Source: an uncultured Bacilli bacterium (lineage in GTDB: Bacteria > Bacillota_I > Bacilli_A > RF39 > UBA660). From it: a DNA stretch of 64,000 nucleotides. The DNA lies in the NCBI GenBank assembly GCA_944371305.1, contig CALVXM010000001.1, forward strand, positions 39,600 through 103,599. Direction: 5' to 3'. Numbering within the stretch: the first letter of the stretch is position 1; each line of letters starts with the position of its first letter. The notes under the pieces were generated by a model, which saw only the letters and a list, made by a program, of their open reading frames with translations, was not told the origin of the DNA and made no database searches. Positions 7,870 to 60,675 of the stretch are shown piece after piece. Both the position numbers and the translations under genes were made by a program.

Positions 7870-8575
7870 TTATGAAAGAATCGCCCTTGAACTATAATAG
7901 ATAGAATTACTACCGTTGTTATAGAAAAAAGCAAATATTCCACCGCCAGGTCCATTAGCATAATGACTGCTACGAAGAACCCAAGAAGTATTAGAATTTA
8001 AAGAATATGAATGCTCTTCATACCAACCACCAATTATAGTTCCTAAAATTGTTAAAGTTTCTTTAGTCGCATCACCTAATTTACCTCTTGAATGCGTTAA
8101 ATTATTAGTTGCATCATATGTATAACTATCATAATACTTAGTTACTAAAACTTGCACCTGAAGAAAGGAAATTACCATTGGCATTAACCATACTACCCAT
8201 TCCATATTCTTAATCACGTGATAATCGCCATTAATTTTATAATTATTAGCAATATTTTTTATCTAATTTCTCGCTGGTTTAACAAGGATTTAAAACTACA
8301 CCTTAATCTTGATGATAAATGACATTATGCAAGTAATTCTATTTCCAAAAGTTTCAATATTAGCTAAAAATACTTCGTTGATAACTGGTATTTGTCCTTC
8401 AATTTGCTCATTATAATAAGTTTCTCTAATCGCTTTAGCATATCCCTCAATACTTCTTTTATTCGCACTATCGCGTGACTGTTCAATTACATTTAATTAG
8501 TATCGCAATTAAAGCAATAATAGCTAATATGATCATAACTGCTAATAATTCGACTAACGTAAACCTTCTAACCTC
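7870..8575 (-). pseudogene. Degraded prepilin-type N-terminal domain gene (pilin-like family member A): no start codon, Gly(-1) replaced by Arg, at least two frameshifts
   Basis: RC of 8500-8575 reads RRFTLVELLAVMIILAIIALIAIL then stop; the next frame continues EQSRDSANKRSIEGYAKAIRETYYNEQIEG...; ORF 7870-8217 carries the C-terminal part (..SWVLRSSHYANGPGGGIFAFFY) resembling the C-termini of the other paralogues. Confidence 0.6.
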
Positions 8576-21783: not shown

Positions 21784-22020
21784 ATCATTTCACCAAGTTT
21801 ATTATATAACAAATAAAAAAAGATTACAATAAAATAGTTTGCTATAACTAATTTAAATATAAAAAAAGATAAATTTTAACTTTATCTTTTTAAGTAAATA
21901 AAATTAATTCTCACCAAAAATATCATCAATAACATTTTCTGGAATATGATAAAATTTTTGATCGAAAATAATATATGGGTGACTTCCCCCAATACTATCT
22001 GTAGGGTCTACCGGTTCTAT

Positions 22021-22410
22021 TCATTCTCCATTAACTTTAAAATTTCCATCACTTTGTAATTCAAATTCATAGTTATTACTCTTTATTTTTAATTTGGTTA
22101 CTTTACCATTTTGATATTTGACTTCTAAGACTTCCGCATTCCCTAAACTCACCATTTTGCTAACATCATCAATGGTTACTCCATCATCATCATTACATAT
22201 ATCTGTACTTTCATCTAATTGATTCTTCATTGCTGATGTCGCACAATAATTATTAATGCCACTTAATATCATACTTGCTTCTGATTTTCCCGCACTCTTT
22301 CTAGCATCTTCAATCACATTTAATATGATTGGGGTTGCTATTAGGGCTATTATAGCTAATATTATTATGACTGCTAATAATTCAATCAATGTAAATCCGC
22401 ATTTCTTCAT
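22021..22410 (-). CDS. Prepilin-type N-terminal cleavage/methylation domain protein (pilin-like family member B, the only intact copy); start at ATG 22410 after a GGAGG Shine-Dalgarno (ORF track extends to a GTG at 22425)
   Basis: MKKCGFTLIELLAVIIILAIIALIATPIIL: class III signal peptide with G(-1) F(+1) E(+5); about 129 aa. Confidence 0.8.
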   Translation of the reverse strand: MKKCGFTLIELLAVIIILAIIALIATPIILNVIEDARKSAGKSEASMILSGINNYCATSAMKNQLDESTDICNDDDGVTIDDVSKMVSLGNAEVLEVKYQNGKVTKLKIKSNNYEFELQSDGNFKVNGE

Positions 22411-22518
22411 AAGTATTCTCCTCACTTTCTTATAACTTATTTATTTAATTAATATATTCTAATAATAAGTTATATTTTTGATATAAGGTATTTCTTTTAA
22501 TTGCGATATTAACAAATA

Positions 22519-22590
22519 TTATTTAGTTGATATCTTTTTCATTCTACGTGTGCTATTCGCTAATAAAGTTTTTACTTTATTTTCTAACAT
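22519..22590 (-). CDS. Candidate leader peptide ORF (23 codons, MLENKVKTLLANSTRRMKKISTK) upstream of pilin-like gene B
   Basis: Conserved with a second copy at 59093-59161 (MIENKVTAKLANSTHGGGQKPL), at about 80% nucleotide identity; preceded by a conserved promoter. Confidence 0.35.
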   Translation of the reverse strand: MLENKVKTLLANSTRRMKKISTK

Positions 22591-22616
22591 CTTACTGCAC
22601 CAACTTTCTATATTTA

Positions 22617-22645
22617 ATTATATATTATTTTTTGCTTAAAAACAA
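22617..22645 (-). promoter_or_regulatory. Sigma-70-type promoter TTGTTT-N17-TATAAT driving the leader ORF and pilin-like gene B
   Basis: Exact hexamers with 17-nt spacer read on the minus strand; the same arrangement is conserved upstream of paralogue D. Confidence 0.5.
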
Positions 22646-22668
22646 AATTTTATGAAAAATAGTTCAAA

Positions 22669-23169
22669 CTATCTGTTTGAACTAATTAAAATATCCTCTA
22701 AATTTAGTCTTGTTCTTGGTAATGGATTTTCATCTTTAACACCAATAGCAATTGCTGATACTAATTCCATTTCAACACCAACTAATTCTTTAACATAATC
22801 TTCAATTTTTTTAATATATCCAATCCATAAACTTCCTAAATTTCTATTTTCACATTCTAATAAAATATTTTCAATTGCTGCTCCAATCGATAAATGATTA
22901 AAATATTCATCGCTACTATTATAGACTAAAATTAAATAAGGAACATTAGCTATTACTTCTGCAGTTTTATTAGGTCCTACTAATTCAATCATTTTTGAAC
23001 TAATTTTAGTTTTTACATCCTGTGAAACAATTAAAAAACGCCAAGGTTGATTATTTTTGGCTGATGGGGCCATCAAACCAGATTTTAAAATATCTTTGAT
23101 TATATCAATTGAAATATCTTCATTTTTATAAGATCTAATACTTCTTCTATTTTTTATTTCCTTTAACAT
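22669..23169 (-). CDS. Nitroreductase family protein
   Basis: N-terminal KNRRSIRSY motif typical of NfsB/FRP-type nitroreductases; 166 aa. Confidence 0.7.
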   Translation of the reverse strand: MLKEIKNRRSIRSYKNEDISIDIIKDILKSGLMAPSAKNNQPWRFLIVSQDVKTKISSKMIELVGPNKTAEVIANVPYLILVYNSSDEYFNHLSIGAAIENILLECENRNLGSLWIGYIKKIEDYVKELVGVEMELVSAIAIGVKDENPLPRTRLNLEDILISSNR

Positions 23170-29437: not shown

Positions 29438-30507
29438 TTAACCTATTCTAAAAGCCGGAGCAACACCATTAATATCAATAGCATGAGGATCATTCCAATT
29501 GCCATCAAGCATAATACGGTAAAAAGCAGTATTAAGGTGAGCAAAAGCAGAACGTGTCCACCAATAACTTTCAAGTTCTTGATGTCTTTTTATTGCTCCT
29601 TTATAATTACTAGTGCTTACATTATTCATTTCATAATAATCTAATTGTCTTGTATTGTTATCGCTCGTATCATTACTTATAATATTACTTGTTCCATTTT
29701 TACCATAGATTTCTTTCGTAGCTAACAAATATAATTTGTCGTTAGTTATAAAATTTTCTAAATCTCCACTACCATGACTAGATATTACTTTTGTATCTAT
29801 TATTACATTTTTTAAATCTTCCGGTAACGAATTATATATATCATTTTTTAAAAATATATATAGTTCACTTGCAGGATATCCCCCTATATTAGTTAAAGTT
29901 GAATTTATTTTACGTAATGTGATTATATCAACAAATTCAATCACAAATCCACAAGCAGTTTGCGAAAATTCATTATTACTACATTCAGATGGCGTTGTAA
30001 TATTGGCTATTCTTACCGTATATGTACCAGCATATTCTCCAGTTAAAGTTACTTCTTTTGTATCTCCTACTTTATATTTACTCATATCCCCATTTTTTAC
30101 GGCATTAGCTATTGTTTTCCATGAATCATCTTTAAATGATACTGGAGTATGATTTTTACATTCTTCATCATAGCGAAATACATATTGATTATTAATTTCA
30201 TCCCATTTATATAATACACAACCTGTCATTTCTTTATTAGTCACTGGATTTATCGTCTCAATTTCTAAAAAGCCACTACTTTTTAATTCATTTAAAAATA
30301 TCGCATTTTCTTCGGTTGAATATCCTAAACTATTTTGAGTACTATAATTATGAGCTGCTTCTAAAATACTATCAATACTTCTTTCTAATGCTGCTTGCTT
30401 ACTATTTTCGATTGATTTATCGACTATTGGAAAAGTTATTAAAGCTATTATTCCAAGTATTATTATGACTGCTAATAATTCAACTAATGTAAATCCTTTT
30501 TTAACAT
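29438..30507 (-). pseudogene. Prepilin-type N-terminal domain protein (pilin-like family member C, about 355 aa if corrected) interrupted by a 1-nt frameshift in an A6 run at codon 4
   Basis: ATG 30507 gives MLKKDLH-stop; shifting one base after the A6 run (plus-strand T6 at 30497-30502) gives ..KKGFTLVELLAVIIILGIIALITFPIVDKSIENSK... continuous with ORF 29438-30244; perfect promoter TTGCTT-N17-TATAAT upstream. Confidence 0.6.
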
Positions 30508-46925: not shown

Positions 46926-50034
<3,109 letters not shown>

Positions 50035-50602: not shown

Positions 50603-50677
50603 TGGAGCAAGTGAGCGGAATCGAACCGCCGTCCCAGCCTTGGCAAGGCCGTATACTAACCGCTGTACTACACCTGC
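50603..50677 (-). tRNA. tRNA-Gly (anticodon GCC), CCA encoded
   Basis: RC folds as cloverleaf: acceptor gcaggtg/cacttgc, anticodon stem cggcc/ggctg, loop ttGCCaa, T-loop ttcgatt, 3' tCCA; 75 nt. Confidence 0.9.
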
Positions 50678-56689: not shown

Positions 56690-56739
56690 ATCATCACCTC
56701 AATTATATAACATATTATAACATATTTTAGAATAAAAAA

Positions 56740-56915
56740 AAAGTCCAAGAATGCGGGCCCTTAACGATAAAACCTAGTCTCTACCAGGTGGGCATCACAT
56801 CATCAATTTTAGGATTCTCAAAATTAATTGAGCCTTCAACACCATCGATGAATTAGATTCCCAATATTCGTTAATCAGTCGGTTTTTCTAAATGAGCTTA
56901 TCGCTATCCTTAGAC
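56740..56915 (-). ncRNA. Candidate small/structured RNA or tkt 5' leader (about 175 nt, GC-rich island, extended -10 TGgTATAAT at 56922-56930, 3' T9)
   Basis: Local GC far above flanks (gggcccgc, cccacctgg); no ORF; family not identified; no clean terminator hairpin found. Confidence 0.2.
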
Positions 56916-56965
56916 AATTATATTATACCATAAATTATTAAAAATATCATAATTTTAAATATTTT

Positions 56966-57943: not shown

Positions 57944-58927
57944 TTAAAAGGAATATGCACGGACGTCGGTGGTATTCGTCGGGTTGTTGTAGAAGTTGCC
58001 ATAGCCATAGACGCGACGAACGTAAGACGAACTATATCTATTTCCTAACCAAAAATAATCTTTTATATCTAAATATGAATTAGTTCCACCTGCTCTTACA
58101 TATTGATTTTCATCTAATAATCCTACTTTTTTAGTTACTGTTATTTCATCGACATCTGTATATATTCCTACATTAAATGTATTGTCTTTTATATTATTTT
58201 GAATGCTACCATCTAAACTATTATAAAAATATTCATTTAACCAATTATTGATATAACTTGCTTCATATTCTTCTTCTGTTTCCCATACATCATAAGCTGG
58301 ACTAATTGCTGTCAATGGTTGTTGAGATACCAATAATAATGTATTCTCTTCTGTATCAATTTCTACTATTCGCCAATGATGACCCCCATACCATAAATAA
58401 TTATTAGTAACTTCGTCATTTGTACCTTTATAATAATATATATTACTATTTGTTTCATCTTGCACTAATCCTTTGGTTCCAACTTGTTCTAATAATGTTG
58501 ATATTAAATTTGTCTCTGGGTCCTCTGGTAGCTTGACACCACATTCTTCTTCATCAATGGAAAAACTTCCATCACCACATAATGTAAATTTATGAGTATT
58601 ACTATTGACTACTAAATTTGTTACTTTACCATTACTGTATTCTACTTCTAATACTTCGGCATTTCCTAAACTTACCATCTTACTTACTTCTTCAGTTGTT
58701 ACTCCATCGGCACATATATCTTCTGTTCCATTTAATTGATTTTTTACTTTACTAGTAGCACAGTAATTATTAATGCCACTTAATATCATACTTGCTTCTG
58801 ATTTGCCCGCACTCTTTCTTGCATCATCAATGACATTTAAGATAATTGGTGTGGCTATCAAAGCTATTATAGCTAATATTATAATAACTGCTAATAATTC
58901 TATTAACGTAAATCATTTTTTCTTCAT
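57944..58927 (-). pseudogene. Prepilin-type N-terminal domain protein (pilin-like family member D, about 327 aa; N-terminal 120 aa about 85% identical to member B plus a roughly 170 aa C-terminal extension) carrying an in-frame TGA at codon 5, exactly the Gly(-1) position
   Basis: ATG 58927 after a GAGGAG Shine-Dalgarno: ATG AAG AAA AAA TGA TTT ACG TTA ATA GAA TTA TTA = MKKK-stop-FTLIELLAVIIILAIIALIATPIIL...; paralogue B has TGC GGA at the same place. Confidence 0.6.
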
Positions 58928-59092
58928 AAACATTCTCCTCACTTCTATTATGTCTTATCTTTATATTGTCTATTCTATAATTTTATTTTAACTTATATTA
59001 GATTATAAGGCAATTATCTTTTTTAATAATATGTGACATTTTTGATGTGAGGTAATTTTTTTATTTTTAAATTAAACAAATAACAATTTAAT

Positions 59093-59161
59093 CTATAAAG
59101 GTTTTTGCCCCCCCCCATGTGTGCTATTTGCTAATTTGGCTGTTACCTTATTTTCTATCAT
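59093..59161 (-). CDS. Candidate leader peptide ORF (22 codons, MIENKVTAKLANSTHGGGQKPL) containing a G9 (plus-strand C9, 59108-59116) homopolymer
   Basis: Paralogous to 22519-22590; the G9 tract encodes GGG within the ORF. Confidence 0.35.
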   Translation of the reverse strand: MIENKVTAKLANSTHGGGQKPL

Positions 59162-59189
59162 CTTACTACACCTACTCTTTCTATTAATA

Positions 59190-59218
59190 ATTATATATTA
59201 TTTATCAATTTAAAACAA
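59190..59218 (-). promoter_or_regulatory. Sigma-70-type promoter TTGTTT-N17-TATAAT driving the leader ORF and pilin-like gene D
   Basis: Exact hexamers, 17-nt spacer; conserved with copy B. Confidence 0.5.
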
Positions 59219-59307
59219 GATTTTATTAAATAAAATTTTGGAATACCAAAAAAATGTAGATATCTCTTTTTTGACATATCTACATTTAATATATTACTTC
59301 GATTCAA

Positions 59308-60675
59308 CTATGATATTTTAAAAGAATTATCCAAACTATCTTTAGGAAATCTAACTACTTCATCAGTCAAATGATTAATTCTAAAGATTTCATTATCAAC
59401 GATATTATCACCATAAGTACCAATATAAAAACTATTCACACCAGCAATATAATTAGCATCACCATAAGTTCCATGTTGCCAATTCTTTAAATAATTAATT
59501 GTTGCTTTAAAATTACTATATTTATTTTCATCTAAAGCTTTAGCAAAACCGATTGGATCATTATGAACCATTTTAACGTACTTAATCCAACCAATATCAT
59601 TATAATCAACTACAACATCATCAAATGTTCTGCCAGTCTCATCAGCATAAATAGCTACTATTAGATCCATCAATCCTTGACCATAATTGTAAGATTGTAA
59701 AGCCATTTTCTCATTACCATGATATTTCTCTAAAACTTTTTGATAACGCATAATTCCCATTTTTATATTAGTTTTTTTATCGATAGCATTATCTAGTGTT
59801 TCATAAATCGTTTCTTCTTCGCTTGTTGTATAATTAAATGCGGTAATTTTTTGCCCATTAGGCGATTCTAATTGACAAATTCCTACGCCAAAACCATTAT
59901 AGTTACTACCGCCAGGAATCGTTGTCTCATGACTTAAACTGGACTCCTTCATAATTAAACAAAGAAATATATATGGATCTATTCCAAAATCATTAGCAGT
60001 TTTTAAAAAGTAATTGCCATCATCAGAATTCAAAAAATTCTTTATTTTATTAATTGTATAATTATCAATTTTAGTACTAATTGGAATTGTAGAACTATTA
60101 GCAACCTCATTGTTAATCACTTTCAAAGTTTGTTCTAAACGATTATTTAAAGTATTATCTAAAGCTTCATAAACAGGTTTTTCTAAATCATCTTCTATAA
60201 CATTATTATAAGAAAGAGCAAATTCTTGTTCAATTTTAGGAATTTCATTTTCGATAATATTTTCCTGAACAACAGTTTGAGTAGTGTTTATATCACTTTT
60301 GTCTAAAACTTGTTTAGCAAGATGAATTGAACCAATCAAGGTAACCGTAGTAAGCGCTAAAGCAGCAATCCGCTTTTTATTATAATTTACCTTCTTAACA
60401 ATAGGAGTTGCCTCATCGATTCCATCTAGTATGGCATGATATAATCTTGAATCAATATGCTTTTTGTACGATTTTAAAGTAAGGGAATTACTACGGTTAT
60501 AAATAATCTTAATATCATTTGCCCGCATCTCAACTAATCTAGGATTGTTAGGTAAACTCTCTATCAAAGCTCGCATTTTAGAAGTACTGTTACTTCTTCT
60601 CACTCTTTTTTGAGGAGTTCTTTCAATAATTGTCTGTTTATATTTACCATTAGAATAATCGATAATTATTTCCAT
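59308..60675 (-). CDS. Bitopic membrane protein with C-terminal SLT-like (lytic transglycosylase / lysozyme-like) domain
   Basis: TM segment IAALALTTVTLIGSIHLA around residue 105; SLT-like motifs MKESS (catalytic E-S), GVGICQL (GLMQ-like), SYNYGQG (AYNAG-like). Confidence 0.45.
   Translation of the reverse strand: MEIIIDYSNGKYKQTIIERTPQKRVRRSNSTSKMRALIESLPNNPRLVEMRANDIKIIYNRSNSLTLKSYKKHIDSRLYHAILDGIDEATPIVKKVNYNKKRIAALALTTVTLIGSIHLAKQVLDKSDINTTQTVVQENIIENEIPKIEQEFALSYNNVIEDDLEKPVYEALDNTLNNRLEQTLKVINNEVANSSTIPISTKIDNYTINKIKNFLNSDDGNYFLKTANDFGIDPYIFLCLIMKESSLSHETTIPGGSNYNGFGVGICQLESPNGQKITAFNYTTSEEETIYETLDNAIDKKTNIKMGIMRYQKVLEKYHGNEKMALQSYNYGQGLMDLIVAIYADETGRTFDDVVVDYNDIGWIKYVKMVHNDPIGFAKALDENKYSNFKATINYLKNWQHGTYGDANYIAGVNSFYIGTYGDNIVDNEIFRINHLTDEVVRFPKDSLDNSFKIS

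Follow-up and report, generated by a model that had tools for sequence, protein, structure and literature searches.

Homopolymers in the promoter or 5′ region switch several families of surface proteins, among them Bordetella fim, Mycoplasma vlp and Treponema tpr. In Neisseria, a poly-G run close to the coding sequence's 5′ end in pilC1 and pilC2 gives rise to translational phase variation (Jonsson et al. 1991, summarised in PMC5320596), and opc carries a poly-C homopolymer switch in its promoter/5′ region (PMC3960869). The mRNA leader of Helicobacter pylori tlpB contains a variable G-repeat that is targeted by the small RNA (sRNA) RepG (PMC8295292). Here we analyse a run of nine G in a 64,000-nucleotide stretch of DNA, called the window below, from a metagenome-assembled genome (MAG) of an uncultured, low-G+C gut lineage of the Bacilli/Mycoplasmatota type, in which cell-wall genes are present. 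The run lies on the minus strand within a small open reading frame (ORF), named ORF1, upstream of a pilin-like gene, D; the lineage carries a large family of such genes, composed of a prepilin N-terminus and a variable DUF6273-type body. The explanation we favour, with moderate confidence, is that a slippage tract switches the frame of the small, conserved ORF1, and that the window has caught it in its truncated (G9) state, beside an inactivated pilin-like gene.

Like Neisseria pilC, the locus is pilus-related and has a G homopolymer early in an ORF, one length class in three giving the full product, with tract lengths that differ between strains. Unlike in pilC, the tract belongs to a separate ORF of about 45 codons upstream of the pilin-like gene and not to the pilus gene itself; the tracts in this module are short (5–7 G, exceptionally 9–10) and stable within haplotypes; and the host is of a Gram-positive-type gut lineage. 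The design of pilC is closely matched by long-leader paralogs in related MAGs, which have G7–G14 in the prepilin leader. With opc, fim, vlp and tpr the locus shares that the copies of a surface-protein multigene family have their own homopolymer in a conserved 5′ module. Their tracts, however, affect transcription, from within the promoter or immediately beside it, whereas here the tract is inside an ORF, about 75 nucleotides (nt) downstream of the −10 box of a promoter-like site, P1, and about 95 nt upstream of the −35 box of a second one, P2.

On the plus strand the run is C9, on the coding strand G9. No other G or C run in the window (26% G+C) exceeds six; runs this long are expected there by chance 0.03 times, as estimated from 100 dinucleotide-preserving shuffles. 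The initial annotation, made from the letters of the window, had singled it out as exceptional, placed it as Gly-Gly-Gly in a 22-codon ORF upstream of gene D, noted that the paralogous small ORF upstream of another pilin-like gene, B, is free of the tract, and proposed that one G more or less would move the stop. All of this holds; 166 nt separate the ORF from the ATG of gene D at 58927. With G10 or G7 the stop moves by 7 nt beyond that of G9; with G8, G5 or G11 it moves by 70 nt. Tract lengths of 5, 8 and 11 thus give a product of 44–46 amino acids (aa), and any other length a stump of 21–24 aa. ORF1 of the window is in the stump state, and a single G deletion would restore its full length; a 31-aa ORF at 59023..59118 already shares the frame of the long form. 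What that first inspection had overlooked is that the G8/G5 frame is the conserved coding frame, and that codon 5 of gene D is TGA.

ORF1 is part of a module of about 310 nt (~59225 to 58928) that comprises P1, an AGGTG Shine–Dalgarno (SD) sequence, ORF1 with its G tract, P2 and the ribosome-binding site (RBS) GAGGAG. In the species and its relatives the module occurs in 28 copies, 16 of them distinct, at no fewer than nine chromosomal loci and always directly before a pilin-like gene. P1, a putative promoter, is near-invariant among the copies: TATAAT never changes, and the first hexamer differs only in copy L098 (TTGTCT). Along 292 nt of the module, the window D copy and L081 share 91% identity, compared with 64% for mraY of the same two genomes, which points either to very strong constraint or to exchange between species.

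The long form of ORF1 is represented by 15 clusters in a public protein collection, of 41–46 aa with one variant of 69 aa. P0122 is the 44-aa product of the gene D locus itself, from two assemblies with G5, and P0129 and P0132 differ in one Gly only. The conserved product reads …LANSTHGG(G)KNLYRLNCYLFNLKI.KLPHIKNVTYY, with a C-terminus, KLPHIKNVTYY, that is nearly invariant across the clusters; the other differences are conservative (R/K, L/V/F, V/I), and one lineage has an in-frame gap of two residues (6 nt). At the nucleotide level, the long frame after the tract is open to the same TAA in 13 of 13 distinct tract-bearing copies, 11 of which are out of frame at the tract, and its variable sites number 7, 3 and 9 at codon positions 1, 2 and 3. 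Because of the long-form clusters, the open frame in 13 copies, the codon-position pattern and the module identity, the supposed untranslated spacer would be ORF1 coding sequence; the 22-codon ORF, which the initial annotation took for a regulatory leader, is most simply read as the truncated state of this conserved small gene. As the tract throws this gene out of frame in most genomes, genome annotation has missed it. Which frame ORF1 is read in depends on the length of the tract; that this length thereby turns a functional 45-aa product on and off we infer from sequence comparison.

A rival account denies ORF1 a function and sees in the tract a hot spot of mutation, the remnant of an ancestral pilin 5′ end that was gated by poly-G, the uniformity of the module being due to its promoters and to homogenisation of paralogs by recombination. 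Most copies are indeed out of frame, the tract state is linked to haplotype, the copy upstream of gene B has lost tract, long frame and P2 while gene B is conserved, the mosaic coding sequence of gene D between strains testifies to recombination among paralogs, and the identity of 91% in the module versus 64% in mraY fits exchange between genomes. Such a relic would nonetheless have to keep at least 25 codons open after the tract in 13 of 13 distinct copies, in stop-rich DNA of 26% G+C, with conservative substitutions, the least variation at second codon positions and an in-frame gap. Moreover, interrupted, non-slippery tracts are found in the in-frame state (L098; P0125, P0127, P0134). We regard a purely neutral relic as doubtful, if the most serious of the alternatives.

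Several observations weigh against the frame switch of a conserved ORF1 that we prefer. The codon-position signal comes from 19 variable sites only, and the sampling of long-form protein clusters is limited to cases with an open frame. ORF1 is out of frame in most module copies, including those that precede intact pilin genes. Its product matches no family in Pfam and NCBIfam, and its AlphaFold model consists of two helices of low confidence (pLDDT, the predicted local distance difference test, of 60). With a dead ORF1 in front of it, gene B is still conserved; a pilin-like gene can thus be kept without ORF1 in cis. The cross-species identity of the module could come from gene conversion or horizontal exchange and not from selection on ORF1. 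As for the tract, all lengths are assembly consensus values; G6 is identical in eight assemblies of the gene D locus and G7 in four of another locus, so the short tracts are stable at the strain level and not fast-switching, and a tract of 5–7 G behaves as an ordinary haplotype marker.

The ORF1 family is very narrow, with eight representatives among 1.84 billion sequences in an exhaustive profile search. The same search returned matches to a LLANSTDGGxTWxY repeat, deemed probable chance: the LANSTHGG..Y part of ORF1 resembles an Asp-box-like repeat, LLANSTDGGxTWxY(R/S)I, that is present many times in large secreted proteins (P0139, P0141), and the likeness is probably fortuitous, the motif being short. 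Between module copies, ORF1 has a hypervariable segment of 15 nt (window 59117–59149, codons 5–9), encoding KVTAK, KVTPL, ILTSK, MITSA and others. The sequence on either side hardly varies. Long-leader homologs lack the segment; in some module copies it lengthens a hairpin containing the ORF1 start codon.

At the gene D locus, 12 independent assemblies have G5 (two), G6 (eight), G9 (the window) and G10 (one), with nearly identical flanks despite the differing tract length. Length tracks haplotype: G5 goes with an intact gene D, and G6, G9 and G10 with an allele broken by TGA. The proposal of a phase-variation switch, to be checked by comparing lengths between isolates, is therefore borne out in part: the tract is a length-polymorphic slipped-strand site that sets the frame of an ORF, with lengths that do differ among the 12 assemblies, but the lengths are tied to haplotype and fast switching at 5–7 G is not what the assemblies indicate. 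The lengths found among strains and paralogs, together with homology to contingency tracts, support a genuine slippage-prone site derived from a phase-variable family. The G9, like the G10 of one other assembly, would have arisen by expansion from G6, the allele characteristic of the haplotype with a dead gene D; it is probably more mutable now than the usual G5–G7, and slippage of RNA polymerase on it is conceivable.

That the run is not nine bases long, or not real, owing to sequencing or assembly is hardly credible. Homopolymers are error-prone, and exactly G9 occurs in no other public assembly; but a G tract stands at the same site in 11 other independent assemblies as well as in paralogous and orthologous copies, and its lengths are reproducible across samples (G6 in eight, and G7 in four at another locus).

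The origin of the tract was approached with a comparison set of 65 loci from about 14 related MAG species (463 kb). In these species an extended leader peptide, M.KLTNSKT(G)nHLLNNA|FTLIELL, is a feature of many pilin-like paralogs, and 9 of the 11 G or C runs of at least 7 in these 463 kb sit at that position of the leader, with n = 7–14, about 18 nt before FTLIELL. Eight of the nine leader tracts are out of frame, with gene bodies behind them that are intact (348–660 aa); long-leader paralogs with an interrupted tract (GGTGGC, GGAGGC) are in frame. By analogy with Neisseria pilC, these leader tracts bear the signature of translational phase variation, and the G7–G14 tracts constitute a previously undescribed poly-G contingency family. 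By nhmmer and alignment, homology to the 5′ ends of the long-leader genes extends over P1, the SD sequence and the 5′ part of ORF1 and ends at the tract. Judged by this relationship, the tract of the window shares ancestry with the poly-G tracts of related species while residing in a detached small ORF. The idea that the spacer is a decayed FTLIELL coding remnant was dropped: the nhmmer homology stops at the tract, and ORF1 coding sequence fits better. The other two G runs of the related loci are a G8 in the body of a pilin-like gene (L079 4560–4567) and, in the RBS region of a gene unrelated to these, a G7 (L027 6022–6028).

Gene D itself is dead in the window haplotype, and its locus is polymorphic for live and dead alleles. 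Its codon 5, at 58915–58913 on the minus strand, is a TGA located exactly at the prepilin Gly(−1) position, so that the combination of basic leader, Gly/Ala at −1, Phe at +1, Glu at +5 and hydrophobic helix in one frame is not found in it. The TGA is present in 10 of the 12 assemblies, i.e. every one without G5, and in several of these gene D is broken at additional points. In ERZ2790584 and ERZ2916540 (L102/L109), which carry the G5 tract, the codon is GGA and the gene, which reads MKKKGFTLIELL, is intact, with 567 aa; compared with it, the window allele is about 900 nt shorter at the 3′ end. Since the TGA is a genuine stop and the 3′ end is lost, we classify gene D as a pseudogene. An alternative genetic code (4 or 25), suggested by the reading MKKK*FTLIELL, is ruled out by TGA usage and by the GGA allele: 15 of 70 long ORFs in this genome end in TGA, and readthrough adds almost nothing. 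An exact-sequence look-up of the 305-aa gene D ORF gave no match. Compared with L005–L012, the 5′ coding part of gene D (58700–58870) is mosaic between strains, with blocks that correspond to gene B or to other paralogs, a pattern suggestive of gene conversion within the family.

In the mechanism that we propose, the poly-G run in ORF1 would slip, and tract length modulo 3 would decide the ORF1 product. In the related species, with the tract inside the prepilin leader, the same event would gate translation of the whole pilin-like protein; at the gene D locus it would control at most ORF1 itself. The 45-aa product could act in cis, through ribosomes crossing a CCUCAC element that resembles an anti-SD sequence, or in trans.

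The initial annotation went further, suggesting that tract length, by moving the stop of a leader ORF, alters coupling or attenuation of the downstream gene. In such a scheme, which may also involve masking of the RBS, expression of the pilin-like gene would depend on the tract. ORF1 and the pilin gene are on the same strand and could share a transcript from P1. CCUCAC (59052–59047) is crossed by ribosomes only in the G5/G8/G11 frame; its pairing with GUGAGG (58942–58937) at the pilin RBS is predicted in every copy tested and in the consensus (minimum free energy, MFE, and RNAalifold), so that translation of full-length ORF1 could unmask the pilin RBS on P1 transcripts. At the gene D locus, the in-frame G5 allele is also the one linked to intact gene D. 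Distance nevertheless excludes direct coupling: the possible ORF1 stops leave 96 nt at the least, and otherwise 159 or 166 nt, before gene D's ATG. No terminator is predicted between ORF1 and gene D, and transcripts from the intervening P2, if it is active, do not contain the anti-SD element. The CCUCAC:GUGAGG pairs show one-sided changes and no compensatory one (covariation term +1.48), and in L088, the copy adjacent to bipA, an RBS change disrupts the pairing and goes uncompensated. An out-of-frame ORF1 precedes many intact pilin genes, and gene D of the window, with its TGA at codon 5, is not expressible whatever the tract does. For these reasons the claim of coupling or attenuation is not supported here; a cis-regulatory role of the ORF1 tract, possible but unsupported, is moot at the gene D locus, where D is dead, and as a general explanation we consider a regulatory leader unlikely.

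We hold it equally improbable that the module is a two-tier contingency device, in which the ORF1 poly-G would be a remote on/off or level switch of the downstream pilin-like adhesin gene. Only the G5/G8/G11 frame would then carry ribosomes through CCUCAC and free the pilin RBS, or else make a small trans-acting activator. Were this true, each pilin-like paralog would be gated independently with no tract inside the adhesin, and the long-leader paralogs found in related species would represent a direct, fused form of this switch. The arrangement recalls leader-peptide attenuation of the ermC/cat type and RBS unmasking by upstream ORFs, in that a short upstream ORF contains a complement of the RBS that is crossed in one frame only. 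It differs from them in having no inducible stalling signal, in the distance between anti-SD and SD (about 105 nt, with a promoter-like site between them), in the lack of covariation support, and in that the frame is set by DNA slippage and not by a ligand.

The G run might also act at the RNA level, within a structured 5′ leader or as the target of a C/U-rich sRNA, its length tuning expression gradually. For this, RepG/tlpB of Helicobacter pylori is a documented precedent (PMC8295292): there too a length-variable G run is upstream of, and outside, the regulated coding sequence, and could tune rather than switch. Unlike that repeat, which is untranslated and acts via an antisense sRNA, the tract here is in a translated-looking ORF with a conserved downstream frame. 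MFE and consensus folds do place the tract in a long hairpin (59115–59100 with 59088–59072 and neighbouring bases), one pair of which is changed on both sides; but the overall covariation term is unfavourable, AT-rich sequence folds promiscuously, and coding constraint already accounts for the conservation downstream of the tract. We rate an RNA-level element as very unlikely. Conserved RNA structure in general was set aside, the RNAalifold helices being plausible with no net covariation. So was a riboswitch or other known RNA: Rfam gave no match in 58850–59320 or 22380–22700, at E up to 10, other than chance-level ones. A possible compensatory AUGUC/GACAU pairing between copies B and D is contradicted by L101. 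Three Logan contigs (L001, L002, L004) end at 59181, which raised the idea of an invertible promoter; no convincing inverted repeats were found there, and the break is explained by 34 nt that this site has in common with other copies of the module in those samples, giving rise to a k=31 graph branch.

On its own, in the decayed locus of the window, the tract is of little consequence. The 5′ poly-G tracts of the family, in the prepilin leader or in the unannotated 45-codon upstream ORF, point to stochastic surface variation similar to that in Neisseria, Campylobacter and Mycoplasma, here among commensals never yet cultivated. The features of the locus and of the other module copies are given in Table 1. 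The long ORF1 ends 9 nt before P2, and the P2 site can equally be read as a 10-bp hairpin.

Table 1 Features of the ORF1–gene D region, its paralog at gene B and other tract-bearing copies (window coordinates)
Feature	Position	Strand	Remarks
P1, promoter-like	59190..59218	-	TTGTTT 59218-59213, 17-nt spacer, TATAAT 59195-59190
Shine–Dalgarno-like AGGTG	59169..59173	-	7 nt before ORF1 ATG; GGTG core kept in all copies
ORF1, G9 (truncated) state	59093..59161	-	22 codons + TAG; MIENKVTAKLANSTHGGGQKPL
ORF1, full length (G8, G5 or G11)	59023..59161	-	MIENKVTAKLANSTHGG(G)KNLYRLNCYLFNLKIKKLPHIKNVTYY; TAA 59025-59023
G9 homopolymer (C9 on +)	59108..59116	-	ORF1 codons 16-18, Gly-Gly-Gly; frame-setting
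CCTCAC	59047..59052	-	encodes Pro-His in full-length ORF1; complementary to GTGAGG of gene D RBS
P2, promoter-like	58985..59013	-	TTGCCT, 17 nt, TAAAAT; TTGACT in most other copies
RBS GAGGAG of pilin-like gene D	58935..58940	-	
Pilin-like gene D, pseudogene allele	57944..58927	-	ATG AAG AAA AAA TGA TTT ACG; DUF6273
Paralogous module upstream of gene B (P1, ORF1-B)	22411..22661	-	~68% identical to D region
Pilin-like gene B, intact	22021..22410	-	129 aa, MKKCGFTLIELL...; Pfam N_methyl (PF07963) E = 1.5e-7
Module copy downstream of bipA			tract G7 in 4 assemblies; G6, G5 in other haplotypes
Module copy L080			tract G7
Module copies L081, L099			tract G6
Module copies L095/L096			tract G6A
Module copy L101			tract G5TG3, interrupted
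Module copy L098			tract AG4CGG, interrupted
Module copy of gene B, 7 assemblies			tract absent
Leader-tract loci L019, L028, L029, L054, L057, L062, L069, L071, L075			

In the gene B module, nearly invariant in seven assemblies, ORF1-B (MLENKVKTLLANSTRRMKKISTK, 22590..22519) has AGAATGA at the position of the tract; the long frame is destroyed and the P2 region deleted. Twenty contigs encode an identical gene B protein. The gene stops at a TGA (22023–22021), beyond which the frame continues for about 40 codons in a gene D-like fashion (region 21904–22410, minus strand), with NGE*IEPVDPTDS (asterisk, stop) against EEECGVKLPEDPETN in gene D. Despite its identical 129-aa product on 20 contigs, gene B looks like a truncated paralog.

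Two further members of the family lie on the minus strand of the window. In pilin-like gene C (29438–30507; DUF6273, E = 3.6e-14), the ATG at 30507–30505 is out of frame with KGFTLVELL, due to an A6 run at 30502–30497 (region 30491–30507); A7 would give MLKKGFTLVELL. The A6 run may be a second homopolymer switch, the mark of a pseudogene or a homopolymer error. Gene A (7870–8567), a fourth pilin-like remnant directly after a hybrid histidine kinase/response-regulator gene, reads RFTLVELLAV..., with no start codon and with frameshifts, and appears degraded.

Elsewhere in the window, a spot beside a tRNA gene (50606–50677, minus strand) is a strain-variable site of integration, occupied here by a large serine recombinase (48163–50031, minus strand) and in other strains by a phage integrase or an ISL3 transposase. 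A 6S RNA (56738–56919, minus strand) is located between transketolase and ttcA-like genes.

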